From an uncultured Verrucomicrobiae bacterium (GTDB taxonomy: Bacteria > Verrucomicrobiota > Verrucomicrobiia > Limisphaerales > Palsa-1400): 64,000 nucleotides of DNA. The first letter of the stretch is position 1. Each line of letters starts with the position of its first letter. Shown here piece by piece: positions 42,901 to 57,900 of the stretch. The position numbers were made by a program. The stretch is taken from the NCBI GenBank assembly GCA_963707025.1, contig CAVPOM010000017.1, positions 128,001-192,000 on the forward strand, written 5' to 3'.

Positions 42901-45900
42901 CGCCGTGTTCCCTCCGTAATAGGCCGTCTCCGCCCCGGGCGTGGGAATGGAGCCGCGCACGCCCCAGAACTTGAGCCGGGTGCCGCCCGGCGCCGGCCGG
43001 GGCCGCGCGCCGGCGGCGGGCGGCCCGCCCAAACGCCGGGCCAGGATGGCGGAAAACTTTTCAAAATCCAGGGGGCGCGCCAGGTATTCGTCCGCGCCGG
43101 CTTCCAGCGAATGAAAGCGTTCGGGCGCCCGGCCGTTGCCGGTGGCGATAATAACGCACGGATGGGCCGGGTCCTGGCGCTGGTGGAGATCGCGGCAGAA
43201 TTGGAAGCCGTCGCCGCGGGGTTTGAGCAGATCACACACGACCAGTTGCGGAGGATGTTGCAGGGAAAGTTCCAGGCCCGTCGCGCGGTCCCCGGCTTCC
43301 AGAACGGTCCAGTCCCGTTCCTTCAACCAAGCCGCCACGGCACGACGAAACTCGCCATCCTCGTCTATGACCAGGCCGGTATTCATGATTGCCTCATCAG
43401 ACACTATCCCCGTTTTCTTAAAGAAAACAAGCGCCCGATTCATCCGGTAGGACCTGCTTGTTCAAATAACGGGAAGGAATAGGGAGAGTTGACAGTTCTC
43501 ATCGCCATGGCAACCCCGCCCGCTGCGACAAAAAGCGACGCTGGTTGATTTGGATGTGTTTTGGAGGCAGGCACTTGGAGAGAATCTCCACCCCCGCCAT
43601 CCTCCCGCCTGGACGCGCTTTCTCTCTCCCCCAGCAGTTTCTGCAATTCTCAGGAGGTTGGAAGATAAGAAAGGCTTAAAAGTCACGAACCCCGGGCACG
43701 CGCAGGCGTGCCGGGTTCGTGCTTTTTGCTCCCCACTGGCTTGGCGCCGCGTTTTACGCGACGGCAATCTTGCGCGGTTTGGCCGCCTCCGCTTTGGGCA
43801 GCGTCAGGGTCAGGATGCCTTGCTCCATCCGGGCGCTGATCTTCTCCGCCTCAATGACAGGGTCCAGTTCGAAGACGCGGCGGAAATCAGCGGCGCTGGA
43901 TTCACGGTAGGACAACCCGGTCTCCGGCAGGGCTGGCGCCGCACGCCGGCCTTGCACGGTCAAAACGGTCCCTTCCACAAGGACGCTTACGCCGTCTTTG
44001 TTGACGCCGGGCAATTCCGCCTCCAGGACGTAACCTTCCTGGGTCTCGTAGATGTTGACCACCGGACGGATGTACTCGCGTTCGGCTGCGACGGCGGCCG
44101 GCTGGGCCGGGGCCGCCTGCTCCGTATTATTGCTGACAATTGTGTTCATAAGTAAATGTTTCCTTTTTGTTGATTGGGCCGGGACGGGATTTTCCGCCGC
44201 CACCGGCGCGATTCATTGAACCGGGATTAATTGAATTCGATTTTGATTTGTTTCGGCTTGGCCTCTTCCGCCTTCGCCAGTTGAATGGTCAGGACGCCAT
44301 CGCTATAGGCGGCCTTGATCGTCTTGGTGTCCACCTGGCAAGGCAGGCTGATGCTGCGCTGGAAGCGGCCGAACCATCTCTCGGAACGGGACACGCCGCC
44401 TTGCTTCTCATCGCGGCCGCCCTTGCGTTCGCCGGACAGGGTGAGGACGCCATCTTGCAGCGAGATGTCAATGTCCTCCTTTTTCATGCCGGGAAGCTCG
44501 GCCTTGACCGTGACAGCCTCTTTGTTGTCATGGATATCCACCGCCGGGAGCCATCCGCCGGAGAACTGTGTTTCAAGCCTGGCGTCCAAAGGCGAGTCGA
44601 AGACGCTGTCCAACGATTGGAGCAGTTGGCTCAAGTCGTTTGGCAGAGTGTAACCCCGGCCCCACGGAGCCAGGCCATATCCTTCAGGTCGTTGCCATCT
44701 GGTAAGTGTCATAAAAATCAATCCTTTCTGTTTCTATCGCTTTCAGTTTCAAACTTAATCATGTTTTCCACTGAGTCCTTATATAGCCAATCCCGTGCCA
44801 AAGAATCGTTTGCCGTGTTGTTATTGTTTAATATGTTAATTATGAGTCACTTGTGAATTATTATCGAATCCTTTCGAAATCATAAAGAGTGTCATTATGT
44901 CTCTTATACGACATGGAAGTCGCAATTCAAGTGGGCCACTGTGACACTATGGCGGTTTAAGAAATTGTGTAGCTCTAAATGAGGGTGGTAGGGCGCGCAC
45001 TCCGTGCGCGCCGCGGCGGGTCCCGATAATTCGGGACCGGGACCCTGCCTTGTAATGCGGCTACAGTATTTGTGAAACCGCTCTAACCAGTATCTTTCAC
45101 TTCACCGTCACTGGGAAGCTGGCTTCGGCTTGGATTGGGGGGCCGACGATGATGAGTTTGGCCTGCCAATCCCCGGCGATCTGCGGTTGCACGGTCACGC
45201 GATACTGGCCGGGCGTGGAAGTGCGCAGGGCTTTGAAAATGCTGTGCGTGATGGAGCCAGGACCGGCCAAGCCCAGTTCAAATCGGACAGCGCCGACATC
45301 CACCAACCTCCCGCCGCCGTCACGGAACTCAATGAAGACGTCATTGCCCGCCGGTCCCAAATGCCCTTCCGAAGTGAACAGATTGGCCGTCAGATTGGTA
45401 ATCGGCGTGGTGGCAAAAGGCTGGCCGGAACATGACATGGACGGGCGGCGGTTTGGAGCGGTTCCACACCAAACAGAGAACCACGCCCAGGACAATGACC
45501 ACCGGCAAAAGATAGAATGCCTTCAGAAAAGTTTTCACTTCACGACTCAGCTTTGGAGTGTGCCGGCAAGTCGGCACCACTTTCGCCAAGCGGGACCAAG
45601 CTTCCCGCACGCCGGACAATGCCACCTTCGGCCCCGGCCCGCAACCCCATCGTCAACCTCTGGTCCCTTCATCACTATCCCGGCGGCATAAAATCATCCT
45701 GGCATCCCGTACACTTGACTGGAGAACGGTCCTGGCCGGCGCGAATAGCCTTGACAACTTCCGCCAATCCCGCCACCATACGCCCATGAGCCAAGGCGTT
45801 GACAAGCGGTTTTCGGCGGGCAAATCGAAACTCATCCTGGGTGTGCTCGTCTGCGGTCTGATCGGCGCGGCGTTGGCCTTCCGCATCCCCGGCGCGGGCG

Positions 45901-54900: not shown

Positions 54901-57900
54901 GATTTTCACTTCGCCCAGCGCGACGGATTGCTCGGTGAATTGGAGCGTCGGCCTGGCTTCGCCGTTTTCCGAACCTGCGGTCCACTCCAGTTGATAGGCG
55001 TGGCCATCCACGAAAACTTTCCGCGAAGGGGGAACAGGAACACTGGCGAGCAAACCGTCGCCCGCGTTGAACGCCTGGGCTCGCTTTTCCCAGGGGCGCA
55101 GCAGCAACCGGCTGTTCTGCAACAAGCCCGACGGGCCCCAGATATTTTGCACGATGCCCACCTGCCAGTCCCGCCCTTGCAAGGTCATTTTGCCTTGCCA
55201 GAACGAGCGCACCGCCGCGGAACAGACAAGTTGCGAAGGCGGACCATAGTCATAGAAGTTGAGGTCCGCCAGCACCCGCCACCTGCCGGCAGGGGTGTTG
55301 AAAAGCAGGTGGACGTTCGTGAAGCCCTGATAATTTGCCGGCCCCGTCGCGCCGGCCAAAAACACGCCGGAGGGATCGTCGGTCAAATCCTGGTTGCGAT
55401 TGAGGTCCAGGTAAAGTTTGCGCGCGTCGCGCTGCCAGAGAAAGGCAATGGCATTGCCCGCATCGCCCGCGAAATTCAAAGCGCCGCGAGCGATTTTGCC
55501 CGAAAGCGCCGCCGGCTCCTTTTTGAAAGGCATGGATTGCGTCCCCAGGCCAACGCCCCAGTTGTTGACGCTATAGGCTGTTTCCTGATATTCCAGCGAA
55601 GCCACCGTCGCGTTTGAGGAGGGGGAACCGGCCGGCGCGCCCTCCGCCGCGAGAAGAACAGCTCCCGGCCAAAATACCGCCATCAGCGTCCACGTCAGCC
55701 GGGCCACCCGGACGTTTCCAAGGCACCGCCAAGATAAACCATCAGTCCTTTGCTTTGCCATTAGACATTTCATTAGCACATCTAAACACCTGTTTCAACA
55801 GAAATCTGTAAATATAAAAATCTGTAATGGTCCAAAGTGTTCGCCGATCCAGAATCGAAGGTGTAAAAGTTTTGGTTCGGCCTTGCTTCCAGGGCGGTTT
55901 AAGAAATTGTGCAGCCCTAAACGAGGGTGGTAGGGCGCGCACTCCGTGCGCGCCGCGGCGGGTCCCGATAATTCGGGACCCGCCCTTGCCGTGCAATGCG
56001 GCTGCAGTATTTGTGAAACGGCTCCAGCCGGAAGCGGATGCGGTCAATGGGTGCCCCTCCAGCCATACGGTTCATCAACTCATTGCCGCTCGGCGATGGA
56101 CTGGAGAATTCCCCCCACGACTTCGCCCTTGGGCTTGGCGCCCTGGTTGCCTTTGCCGTGGACGCGCACGCTCACCTGGCCGGCCTCCAGGTCGCGCTGG
56201 CCGATCACCAGCATGGTGTGGACTTTGGCCTCCTCGGCCCGCTGGATCTTGCCGTTGATTTTGTCGGTGCCGAAATCGCCCTCCGCCCGGACTTGCTTGG
56301 CGCGCAGTTCGGCGATGATGGACTTGGCATAGGTGACGAGCTTTTCGTCGTCGCCGATGGTCAGGACGCGGACCTGCTCGGGGGCGAGCCACAAGGGGAA
56401 ATTGCCGGCGTAATGCTCGATGAGGAATCCGATGAAACGCTCGTGCGTGCCCAGCGGGGCGCGATGGATGCAGAGCGGCGTCTTGTCGGTGTTGTCCTTG
56501 TCGCGGTAGGTGAGGCCGAATCTGGCGGGGACGGCGAAATCCACCTGGTTGGTGGCGAGGGTGAATTCGCGGCCAATGACGCTCCAGACCTGCACGTCAA
56601 TTTTCGGCCCGTAAAAGGCGGCTTCGTTGGGCACCTCGACGTACGGGATGCCGCTGTTTTTAAGCACGTCGCGCACCATGTTCTCGGTCTGAATCCAGAG
56701 GGCCGGTTCGTTGACGAATTTCTGGCCGAGCTTGGCCGGGTCGTGCGTGCTGAAGCGCATGACGTGTTTCTCGATGCCGAAAATCTTGAAATACTTGAGA
56801 TACAATTCGTTGACGGCGTTGAACTCCTGCGCGAATTGTTCCGGGGTGCAGTAAATGTGGGCGTCGTTCATGTTCAACATGCGCACGCGCATCAGGCCGA
56901 ACAACTCGCCCGATTGTTCGTAGCGATAGTTCGTGCCATATTCCGCCAGGCGCAACGGCAGATCCCGGTAACTCCGCGGCTCCGCCGCAAAAATGCGGTG
57001 GTGGTGCGGGCAGTTCATGGCTTTGAGGTAATAGACTTCGCCTGTTGCCAACTGTGCTTCCAATCTGAGCCGTTCTGTATTCTCCTTGTTAATGGCGCGA
57101 CCACGGTCACTAAGAAAGGCTTCGGATTGTTCACGATTTTCAATTTGCGTCATGTCCTCCCAGAATTTGTTTTCGTTCACACGAATCGCCTGAATCCGAG
57201 ATTGGACATTCGCTTCGTTTTCAATTGGAAGTCTTATCGCAGGAAACATCGAATCTTTGTAAAGAATCGGCAGATGTCCGCTCGTGAGATACATTTTTTC
57301 TTTCGCAATGTGCGGCGTTTTCACGCGCACGTAGCCGGCGGCGAATTCGGTTTCCTTGGCGAGCTTTTCCAACTCCTCCAAAATGGCGGTGCCTTTGGGA
57401 AGCCAGAGCGGGAGGCCGGGGCCGACGTATTCGGCGTCCATGGCGAAGAGGCCCATTTCCTGGCCAATCCTGCGGTGGTCGCGGCGCTTGGCTTCCTCCA
57501 CCATCGCGAAATAGGCCTCCATCTCGGTCTTGTTTTTGAAGGCGGTGCCGTAGATGCGCTGGAGCTGCGGATTTTTTTCGTCGCCTTTGTAGTAGGCGCT
57601 GGCGACGGTGGTGAGCTTGAACGCGCCGATGTTGCCGGTGCGCATGACATGCGGCCCGGCGCACAGGTCCAGAAAATCGCCGTTTTTGAAATAGGTGATC
57701 TGTTCGCCTTCGGGAATGTCCGCCAGGTTGCCGATTTTGAATTTGCTCGGCTGGCCGGGGCGCTCGGCCAGGGCCCCGAGCCGTCCGCTTTCCGCGTCGC
57801 GCAGGGCCTGTTCGCGGGTGACGGTCATCTTCTCGAAAGTGTGGTTGGCCTTGATTTCCTGTTTCATCCCAGCCTCGATTTTCGGGAAATCCTCCGGCGT

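Follow-up and report, generated by a model that had tools for sequence, protein, structure and literature searches.

A probable family of exported selenoproteins encoded beside tRNA-Sec in a Limisphaerales genome, with a candidate small selenoprotein and a NapH-like protein as neighbors

Among the selenoproteins catalogued to date, the DsbA-like, DsbG-like and TlpA/Prx-like groups are closest in character to the proteins described here: they too are periplasmic or exported, carry selenocysteine (Sec, U) near a Cys, and have a SECIS element in the coding region. The likeness to TlpA/AhpC-like proteins extends to a fused Redoxin domain in Cys-form relatives of the present domain. However, the fold found here is an Ig-like beta-sandwich rather than a thioredoxin fold, the spacing is U-x-x-x-C rather than UxxC or CxxU, and Cys forms are rare. 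DUF1573, which we take to be an Ig-like sandwich, is likewise a small exported domain with Sec beside Gly and Cys (PF07610; catalogue motif UGC), but differs in motif and spacing, and PF07610 gives no match to either protein at E up to 1. The NF049953 family ("ribbon_DG_selen," hypothetical protein DG, GUxG) has the short motif G-U-x-G in common with them; its model does not match these loci, the best scores in this genome (17.5 bits, where the cut-off is 130) being on other contigs.

Two further groups are relevant to the neighboring genes. The names of the "UXX-star" and "KCU-star" families (NF041114, NF041211, NF033934) imply the same near-C-terminal Sec layout as in a small protein encoded here; the latter, however, has one membrane helix and a CPT-U tail, its gene is followed by a NapH-like gene in 12 of 13 loci, and no NCBIfam model matches it at E up to 1. 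NapH/MauN/NosR-type proteins feed electrons to periplasmic enzymes. Like NapH, MauN and NosR-NosH, the product of the neighbor gene has a Fer4_5 domain, CX3CP motifs and two ferredoxin-type Cys clusters, but it falls far below the family cut-offs (NapH/MauN TIGR02163, 43 bits vs. 213; NosR, 50 vs. 1000), and no NapG, Nap or Nos genes were found near it in the neighborhoods scanned.

The window analyzed is a stretch of 64,000 nt, C17:128001-192000, so that contig positions are converted by subtracting 128000 (not by the offset of 164081 in a preliminary description of the locus). Its relevant features, in window coordinates, are:

53656-55761 (from ATG) or up to 55779 (from GTG), minus strand: gene A coding sequence; stop TGA at 53653-53655
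54499-54501, minus strand: proposed Sec codon UGA of gene A, residue 427 numbered from the GTG start
54468-54484, minus strand: SECIS-like hairpin of gene A, GCACUCG-UGG-CGAGUGC
52356-53621, minus strand: gene B coding sequence, 380 + U + 41 residues; stop TAG at 52353-52355
52479-52481, minus strand: proposed Sec codon UGA of gene B, spanned by a metagenome contig of identical sequence
52448-52464, minus strand: SECIS-like hairpin of gene B, GCUCUC-AUGGC-GGGAGC
51942-52038, minus strand: tRNA-Sec, anticodon UCA (tca), the one ARAGORN match
51546-51917, minus strand: small single-helix protein; proposed Sec codon UGA at 51552-51554, stop TAA at 51543-51545
51520-51538, minus strand: hairpin behind the UGA of the small gene, in the 3' untranslated region, CGGCCGC-AUGGC-GUGGCCG
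50086-50973, minus strand: NapH/MauN/NosR-like polytopic membrane protein, Fer4_5 (Pfam, 54 bits vs. a cut-off of 22)

The span given earlier, 45786..55761, ends correctly at the ATG of gene A, but its start lies 6 kb past the tRNA, and plus-strand genes with no relation to the locus (Big_5, peptidase S41) fall inside it.

Genes A and B had been described as two adjacent minus-strand genes cut at an in-frame TGA, and translation bears this out. With TGA read as U, gene A is open from GTG 55779 or ATG 55761 to its stop, and each gene has a single internal TGA, lying within a shared motif, [FY]G-U-GGxC[SA]xSWRxP (FEFG-U-GGTCSHSWRVP in A, FEFG-U-GGVCSLSWREP in B). In a raw-data check against a soil metagenome run, the TGA of gene B was bridged by a short-read contig (X2, record 14, 52396-52546, 0 differences) and that of gene A by none; the bridging contig may share its sample with the assembly. 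Two further copies expected on contig C11 were found there, with one in-frame TGA apiece.

In a sample of 201 genomes of the order, the family occurs in 15 genomes (this one included), with an in-frame TGA in 28 of 28 matches; in a sample of 401 genomes of the phylum, it occurs in 13 (again including this one), with exactly one TGA in 23 of 23 matches, 19 of them outside this genome. For the two samples together, all 47 non-self matches have an in-frame TGA. The earlier statement that there is exactly one in-frame stop, always TGA, thus holds as to the codon, but as to number applies to 27 of the 28 order-sample matches, one long alignment having two TGA and two TAA. The Sec column is conserved in all 47 extracted members (46 in alignment A5, and L080, read on its own), and the block spanning the UGA is the most conserved of the whole protein. 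It is not the invariant G-U-GG-x-C-x-x-SWR first proposed: GD, GS, SG and GF variants were seen, one subtype has G replacing W, and two Sec-form members lack the +4 Cys.

Neither gene matched any Pfam or NCBIfam family, and the family is absent from the 119-family table of the 2026 selenoprotein catalogue, as had been reported. The proteins A and B are very probably exported and contain Sec, and none of the three collections includes their family. Databases file the two halves of these proteins as separate hypothetical proteins. Among the matches listed, 120 of 120 database homologues of gene B terminate in E[FY]G, in keeping with the claim that they end at the TGA; the accompanying claim that none reads on with Cys went too far, since 38 database representatives that read through the U column, 6 with Cys and 32 with other residues, were picked up by a profile built across the motif. 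To judge from these, Cys forms exist but are rare. Two of the six carry a fused Redoxin/AhpC-TSA domain, which has a CxCxxC motif. Several of the 32 with neither Sec nor Cys also lack the +4 Cys; taken with the two Sec forms without it, these mean that a U...C redox pair cannot be the full account, and that the scaffold has a role independent of Sec.

The proposed SECIS hairpin, with its compensatory changes, proved to be well supported. It starts 17 nt past the U of the UGA, and has a stem of 6-8 bp and a loop of 3-5 nt holding GG. Pairing was found in 162 of 162 cells in 28 sequences and, over 6 bp, in 270 of 270 cells in 46 sequences (45 distinct), with both-sided change in five of the six pairs (pair 28-42: UA 22, CG 15, GC 7, UG 1); since the covarying positions track protein subtypes, independent changes are fewer than these cell counts suggest. 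The covariation score of 0.554, compared to 0.144 in shuffles, was reached by 0 of 500 shuffles, and in slid registers pairing was at most 61%. Entropy at synonymous third positions is 0-0.37 bit in the stem vs. 1.0-1.9 in flanking codons; as noted earlier, Val GUA always occurs with Tyr UAC, and GUG with His CAC. In most members the apical loop is AUGGC, with its G at positions 3-4, while the published bSECIS model wants it at the first two; the loop agrees with the model only when an A.C pair is taken as its closing pair. The -7.5 kcal/mol of the model is attained by the 19-nt core hairpin of 17 out of 28 members, the remaining 11 being at -7.1.

ARAGORN places tRNA-Sec directly after genes A and B on the same strand, confirming the preliminary description. 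It lies directly behind an A or B gene in three genomes (G000, G085, and G082), and behind the A gene in G082 and, as already claimed, in G085. In the order sample selA is present in 13 of the 15 carriers, vs. 74 of 201 genomes overall; both selA-less carriers have selD, and one also has tRNA-Sec. The cluster in G119 includes a SelD-AhpD fusion. In this genome selA, selB and selD are on contig C12, each interrupted by frame changes. These had been put down to assembly errors, and because rpoB and rpoC are broken as well (about ten frame pieces each), an error-ridden assembly rather than lost Sec decoding is the better explanation. The in-frame UGA would be decoded by a bacterial SelA/SelB/SelD/tRNA-Sec system, directed by the coding-region hairpin; that the UGAs of A and B are read as Sec is, on this evidence, very probable.

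Gene A is predicted to encode a signal-anchor helix, an all-beta exported region of ~400 aa, Sec, and then seven membrane helices whose charged loops obey the positive-inside rule (AF2 model: pLDDT 87.6, pTM 0.75). Its 13 A-type orthologues align collinearly through the TGA: in all 13 the downstream part, with 273-295 conserved membrane-domain residues, continues in the same frame with no gap, and the motif crosses the TGA. Gene B encodes a cleavable signal peptide with an AxA site and an all-beta protein, predicted to be exported (pLDDT 89.4, pTM 0.81). In relatives, B types run 265-511 residues past Sec, into a Laminin_G_3 domain (Pfam, in frame in four of four long B types scanned, E 2.5e-19 to 1.9e-32); gene B here, with only 41-42 residues past the UGA like that of G119, is a short form. 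Type A would then be an Ig-like domain tethered to seven membrane helices, and type B and other soluble types the same domain followed by ~40 residues or a LamG lectin-like domain. The export topology is that suggested by the signal peptide and the positive-inside rule. The models put Sec, usually four residues before Cys, at a beta-hairpin turn of the C-terminal Ig-like beta-sandwich, which would face the periplasm, so that the UGA falls mid-sandwich and the last strands are encoded past it. Ig-like sandwiches of a generic kind were all that fold searches returned (Z up to 9.4), with no match for the membrane domain, so that function has to be argued from context.

Part of that context is the small gene at 51546-51917, previously overlooked and a second candidate selenoprotein. 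Its tail, AKTPCPT-U-MK-stop, has a CxxU motif whose Sec is the third-last residue, which would put any SECIS behind the stop codon; the hairpin there is paired in 79 of 90 cells in 13 sequences. All 13 homologues in the order sample have the CPT-U-x-x-stop ending, and among the matches listed 120 of 120 database homologues end in CPT. In this sample the gene occurs only in carriers of the family, 13 of 15 (among them all 12 of those with an A type) vs. 0 of 186 non-carriers. An order-level profile found it in 0 of 400 genomes outside the order; going by the A-like loci fetched, at least three of these misses are due to profile sensitivity. Three of five such loci from outside the order have the small gene, a NapH-like gene and an A-like gene in tandem. 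In the NapH-like protein the CX3CP/CxxCP motifs are conserved, as are two ferredoxin-type Cys motifs (alignment A9); its gene immediately follows the small gene in 12 of 13 loci, and in the order only 5 of 11 A loci have the pair next to A.

These associations make it reasonably likely that the family, the small CPT-U protein and the NapH-like protein form a functional three-part module. How it might work can be proposed more tentatively, with somewhat less than even confidence: a thiol/selenol redox relay, probably periplasmic, in which the NapH-like protein, a membrane iron-sulfur protein, would draw electrons from the quinol pool or the cytoplasm and pass them via its CX3CP thiols to the periplasmic CxxU tail of the single-helix protein. 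This in turn would reduce the U...C center of A and B, which may be selenol oxidoreductases of the periplasm or the cell surface. Both the redox role and the direction of electron flow are conjectural.

One alternative, which we consider rather unlikely, is that Sec is a binding site and not a catalytic redox center. The selenol of the Ig-like domain, with or without the +4 Cys, would hold a soft metal or chalcogen (Cu, Hg, Se/S compounds) at the cell surface, while the NapH-like protein and CxxU tail would serve metal or selenium reduction and hand-over. CcoG, a related Fer4_5 membrane protein, is a cupric reductase; the clusters adjoin selenium-metabolism genes (tRNA-Sec, selD), two Sec forms do without the +4 Cys, and several selenoproteins in the catalogue table are metal-binding. 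There is, however, no conserved His/Cys/Met cluster around Sec besides the single Cys, and no recurring metal transporter in the scanned neighborhoods; the fusion of Cys forms to a thioredoxin-fold Redoxin domain also points to thiol-disulfide chemistry.

It is much harder to see the UGA as a regulated stop, yielding mainly a short exported protein, with the hairpin promoting occasional Sec-independent read-through or pausing and the long form a minor product. Gene calls and databases do hold only short forms, and the extension in this gene B and that of G119 is short; but the UGA would interrupt a beta-sandwich mid-fold and the most conserved block of the protein, carriers have Sec machinery (selA, or selD in the other two), tRNA-Sec is physically linked in three genomes, and a mere stop signal would have no reason to be UGA every time, as it is in all 47 non-self matches. 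Least credible of all are ordinary stops separating two genes per locus, as table-11 gene calls would have it, or an organism-wide reading of TGA as Trp or Gly, as G or W at the Sec column of some database homologues might suggest (other-code gene calls could explain these): the A types continue gaplessly in frame with the motif across the TGA, 10 of 13 have TGA as terminal stop, so that it works as one in these genomes, each gene has a single internal TGA, and the hairpin covaries at synonymous sites.

With the UGAs read as Sec, the A/B family, the small selenoprotein and the membrane iron-sulfur protein together look like a new selenium-based redox module.

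Genes A and B are each split in two by table 11 gene calling. Read through a single in-frame TGA apiece, they become an exported beta protein followed by membrane helices (A) and a soluble exported paralogue (B), both upstream of a tRNA-Sec gene and on the same strand:

51942-52038, minus strand: tRNA-Sec, identified by ARAGORN, the sole tRNA of the window
52356-53621, minus strand: gene B, read from 53621 to 52356, stop TAG
52479-52481, minus strand: the single internal TGA of gene B, within FEFG-U-GGVCSLSWREP
53653-55761, minus strand: gene A, from an ATG at 55761 (or a GTG at 55779) to a terminating TGA at 53653-53655
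54499-54501, minus strand: the single internal TGA of gene A, within FEFG-U-GGTCSHSWRVP

This arrangement is as the preliminary description had it, except for its conversion of contig to window coordinates: it subtracted 164081, and the correct figure for C17:128001-192000 is 128000. The two further family copies it placed on contig C11 are also there, with one in-frame TGA each. A short-read metagenome contig, which may share its sample of origin with the assembly, spans the TGA of gene B with zero differences; among the metagenome short-read contigs, none spans the UGA of gene A or that of a small gene directly behind the tRNA-Sec (see below).

The TGA is conserved well beyond this genome. 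A six-frame search with A through 201 genomes of the order Limisphaerales, our own counted in, gave 15 carriers of the family, with an in-frame TGA in 28 of 28 matches. Exactly one TGA was found in 27 of these; the remaining one, a long alignment, has two TGA and two TAA. A search profile covering 116 residues about the Sec position, run on a sample of 401 genomes from the phylum, gave 13 carriers and exactly one TGA in each of 23 matches, 19 of them outside our own genome and spread over seven other families. In alignments A1, A2, and A5, the TGA occupies one single column.

The sequence behind it is coding as well. All 13 A types have a conserved membrane domain of 273-295 residues there, and four long B types (in G138, G085, G195, and G059) continue for 265-511 residues, each with an in-frame Laminin_G_3 domain (PF13385; E 2.5e-19 to 1.9e-32, 70-113 bits against a gathering cut-off of 27.6). 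Our own gene B and its orthologue in the carrier G119 are short forms with 41-42 residues after Sec, and a Pfam scan of the former found no Laminin_G_3 part. Genome-wide reassignment of TGA can be dismissed, since 10 of the 13 A types end on a terminating TGA. With the hairpin, Sec machinery, and gene linkage described next, five concordant lines of evidence make it very likely that the predicted Sec-UGA of A and B is decoded as Sec.

A hairpin beginning 17 nt after the U of the UGA points the same way. All 162 cells are paired in the order-level alignment (28 sequences), and all 270 in a wider set that includes distant subtypes (46 sequences, 45 of them distinct), where five of the six pairs show changes on both sides; the hairpin with compensatory change proposed in the preliminary description thus stands on a larger set. 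Its covariation score is 0.554, against 0.144 for shuffled alignments, with none of 500 shuffles attaining the observed value, and in slid registers pairing does not exceed 61%. One fetched locus, L080, was excluded from the 46-sequence count, because the loss of one codon puts it out of register; its own hairpin is a different one, of 9 bp. Synonymous third positions carry 0-0.37 bit within the stem, as opposed to 1.0-1.9 bit in the flanking codons, and the choice among synonymous Val codons tracks the opposing Tyr or His codon, again as first described. In subtypes D (SATW[RS]GP) and E (RYSGRVP) the amino acids have changed, yet the stem is re-formed in the identical register.

The published bSECIS model has a stem of 4-16 bp, a loop of 3-9 nt, a distance of 16-37 nt from UGA to loop, a G within the first two loop positions, and a minimum free energy (MFE) of -7.5 kcal/mol or lower. 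The family hairpin lies within this geometry (stem 6-8 bp, loop 3-5 nt, UGA-to-loop distance 20-21 nt). The loops GGU, GGC, GGG, and UGG have the G in place; the common AUGGC loop does so on condition that the loop is taken to be closed by its A.C pair. The MFE of the 19-nt core ranges from -7.1 to -10.3 kcal/mol, with -7.5 attained by 17 of 28 members.

Machinery for Sec insertion accompanies the family. In our own genome selA, selB, and selD lie together on contig C12, each interrupted by frame changes, and tRNA-Sec is present. Frame errors occur throughout this assembly and bear on the reading of any split gene in it: rpoB and rpoC are in about ten frame pieces each (G000:C6:393346-401325), and the window itself holds another example:

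61326-63982, plus strand: ribonucleotide reductase large subunit, frame split at about 63400

With the whole assembly likewise broken, the interruptions in the sel genes are uninformative as to any loss of Sec decoding; they fit the indel errors suspected in the preliminary description. Among the order-level genomes selA was found in 13 of 15 carriers as against 74 of 201 genomes overall, the genomes being relatives and so not independent; a nominal Fisher value for this contrast accordingly carries no weight. The two carriers in which selA was not detected still have Sec machinery, namely selD in both: in G006 it is accompanied by tRNA-Sec, and in G140, a genome 57% complete, it contains an in-frame TGA (G140:C138:1051-1977), which suggests that this SelD is probably itself a selenoprotein. 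Physical linkage is also seen. The tRNA-Sec gene directly follows an A or B gene in G085, as reported earlier, and in G082 as well as in our own genome, while the G119 cluster includes, beside its gene for a NapH-like membrane protein, a SelD (TIGR00476, 326 bits; L057:155-1987, plus strand) with a C-terminal AhpD/CMD-like fusion.

Existing catalogues of prokaryotic selenoproteins, which are still growing, appear to lack the family, in agreement with the first account. Neither gene has a match beyond noise in Pfam or NCBIfam 20.0 at E up to 1, and nothing in the table of a 2026 review, which lists 119 prokaryotic selenoprotein families, corresponds to A/B. Of the catalogue entries only NF049953 (GUxG) resembles it in its short motif, and this model has no match at the A/B loci. 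The family is likewise absent from those of Haft and Tolstoy (2025), as these are represented in the review table and the NCBIfam models. The proteins themselves are not scarce: as unnamed pieces, public databases hold 744 matches for B (all 120 among the matches listed end in E[FY]G), 433 for the membrane half of A, and 272 for the product of the small gene. The deep-Sep paper points out that the main search methods need Cys homologues, and that methods depending on these can miss families without them; with very few such homologues here, this explains how the family has been overlooked so far. The comparisons make a well-supported case for A/B as a real selenoprotein family missing from current catalogues. 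They join a known kind, the bacterial selenoproteins, and their novelty lies in the fold context, in how few Cys forms there are, and in a three-gene module.

Forms without Sec were sought with a profile search that ranked read-through forms first, giving 1183 representatives. Among the best 150 of these, 108 end in [FYW]G, two (P0267 and P0268) stop at or right after the Sec column, two (P0179 and P0197) do not align to the motif, and 38 read through. These 38 have Cys at the Sec column in six cases and other residues in 32 (G in seven, L in six, S in four, W in three, P in three, and others); several have also lost the Cys at +4. The G and W might reflect a reading of TGA by translation tables 25 and 4. 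In two of the six Cys forms, a Redoxin/AhpC-TSA domain with a CxCxxC motif is fused to the Sec-domain relative. The preliminary description, in which all database homologues ended at the TGA and none had Cys, was too strong: judged by these sequences, there are a few Cys forms, which are rare, and some versions of the scaffold have no redox residue at all. Its motif block, G-U-GG-x-C-x-x-SWR, was called invariant and is not: U-GD, U-GS, U-SG, and U-GF variants occur, subtype E has G in place of W, and the +4 Cys is missing in two Sec forms.

Confident AlphaFold models of B (pLDDT 89.4, pTM 0.81) and A (pLDDT 87.6, pTM 0.75) are chains of beta-sandwich domains with Sec at a beta-hairpin turn of the final one, which is Ig-like and in A precedes seven helices. 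A thioredoxin-fold oxidoreductase is rejected, as the sandwich that surrounds Sec in the models is all-beta and Ig-like. The B protein starts with a classical signal peptide. The basic loops of A (KPNR, RRQHR, and CRGRYRP) and its C-terminal RERLK alternate according to the positive-inside rule, a pattern we read as predicting that the beta part is periplasmic and the C-terminus cytoplasmic. In fold searches, Foldseek against the PDB found nothing useful for the B model (best E 6e-4 at a TM of 0.14), and wide VIA-align searches with both models matched the Sec domain to no more than generic Ig/FN3/macroglobulin-like sandwiches (Z up to 9.4). One domain filled these lists, so they bear little on the N-terminal beta domains and the membrane domain; they had nothing useful for the helices of A (best row Z 7.9, rmsd 5.7). 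With generic matches only, no function can be deduced from the fold.

Three genes follow the tRNA-Sec on the same strand:

51546-51917 (with stop, 51543-51917), minus strand: small gene directly behind tRNA-Sec; one membrane helix, ending AKTPCPT-U-MK-stop
51044-51481, minus strand: 23S_rRNA_IVP (PF05635) four-helix-bundle gene, inserted between the small gene and the NapH-like gene
50086-50973, minus strand: NapH/MauN/NosR-like Fer4_5 membrane protein (Fer4_5 54 bits, cut-off 22)

The UGA of the small gene is followed after 16 nt by a hairpin, CGGCCGC-AUGGC-GUGGCCG. Of the 201 genomes in the order-level sample, 13 have the gene, and each is an A/B carrier; this amounts to 13 of 15 carriers, all 12 genomes with an A type, and none of 186 non-carriers. 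All 13 proteins end in CPT-U-x-x-stop, with a hairpin 16-19 nt after the UGA (79 of 90 cells paired in the alignment, with one AU/GC exchange), and the CPT ending is found in 120 of 120 database homologues among the matches listed. No Pfam or NCBIfam model fits, and the only likeness to the catalogued "UXX-star" families is the position of Sec, third from the end. In 400 genomes from outside the order, the order-level profile of the small protein had no match; this blank reflects the sensitivity of the profile, since divergent small genes turned up in three of those genomes. At three of five A-like loci fetched from beyond the order, a small gene (ending CPT-U-K or CPT-U-M), a NapH-like gene, and an A-like gene stand in tandem. 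The small protein is thus, by its sequence, a candidate for a second selenoprotein family.

The NapH-like gene comes next after the small gene at 12 of 13 loci, the thirteenth stopping at a contig edge. Its product carries two ferredoxin-type clusters besides conserved CX3CP/CxxCP motifs, and many orthologues begin with an extra N-terminal Cys motif, MDCP..C. It falls below the cut-off of the NapH/MauN family proper (TIGR02163, 43.1 bits against 213), and that assignment was rejected. The intervening 23S_rRNA_IVP gene is seen in our own genome only; the relatives have a gap of 20-50 nt at this place. The pair of small and NapH-like genes adjoins A at 5 of the 11 A loci of the order, and otherwise lies elsewhere in the genome.

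Other neighbours recur less regularly. A protein of about 1100 aa with CarboxypepD_reg repeats is encoded beside A or B in four carriers (G119, G195, G157, and G115), at the following places in the fetched loci:

L059:10574-13906, CarboxypepD_reg-repeat protein
L060:11013-14225, CarboxypepD_reg-repeat protein
L062:12373-15612, CarboxypepD_reg-repeat protein
L057:3534-6970, CarboxypepD_reg-repeat protein

By eye, its C-terminal 130 residues look thioredoxin-fold-like, without a CxxC. At a locus outside the order (L113, in G508:C10) three Sec-domain genes lie at 9582-15214, within 6 kb of a single NapH-like gene; this group is a local family expansion. In the window, two plus-strand open frames overlap at 45558-48234 in different reading frames: one, of 634 aa, has no family, and the other, of 339 aa, has Big_5. 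An assembly indel may have split a single exported protein into these two, and a peptidase S41 gene follows at 48272-50038.

The A/B, small, and NapH-like genes show Sec-type recoding signals together with extracytoplasmic targeting signals, stand in a fixed three-gene partnership, and probably form a functional module. What this might do can be put only tentatively. A redox relay seems to us a reasonable guess, if a little short of an even chance: the NapH-like protein would supply electrons, the small protein would use its CxxU tail as a mobile periplasmic selenol/thiol arm, and the U...C centre on the Ig-like domain would be the acceptor (A at the membrane; B, C, and D soluble and partly lectin-tagged) and would act on a substrate. 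A simple selenenylsulfide couple at this centre is doubtful, because many homologues have neither Sec nor Cys and two Sec forms lack the +4 Cys. The main alternative to the relay is a role in binding a metal or chalcogen, which we consider unlikely.

The redox relay can be taken a step further, though here we are speculating and would sooner doubt the proposal than adopt it: the module could be a so far undescribed three-part envelope redox system of Verrucomicrobiota, built on two new selenoprotein families, that would do with selenium what the DsbD/CcdA pathway does in reductant export. The NapH-like iron-sulfur protein would then push electrons across the membrane to the flexible CxxU-xx tail. 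This tail is proposed to behave as the C-terminal Sec arm does in thioredoxin reductase, and it would hand the electrons on to the Sec Ig-like domains, both on the seven-helix protein and on the secreted, lectin-tagged paralogues. Such a system, if real, would serve cell-surface or polysaccharide-associated chemistry.

Once recognised, the A/B family would allow faulty annotations to be mended in many soil Verrucomicrobiota genomes. Its recognition would also extend the known contexts of Sec by an Ig-like fold and a seven-helix membrane protein, and supply a compact, lineage-specific SECIS consensus. The fixed gene partnership, for its part, leads to a concrete and testable hypothesis, that of a cell-envelope electron relay dependent on selenium.
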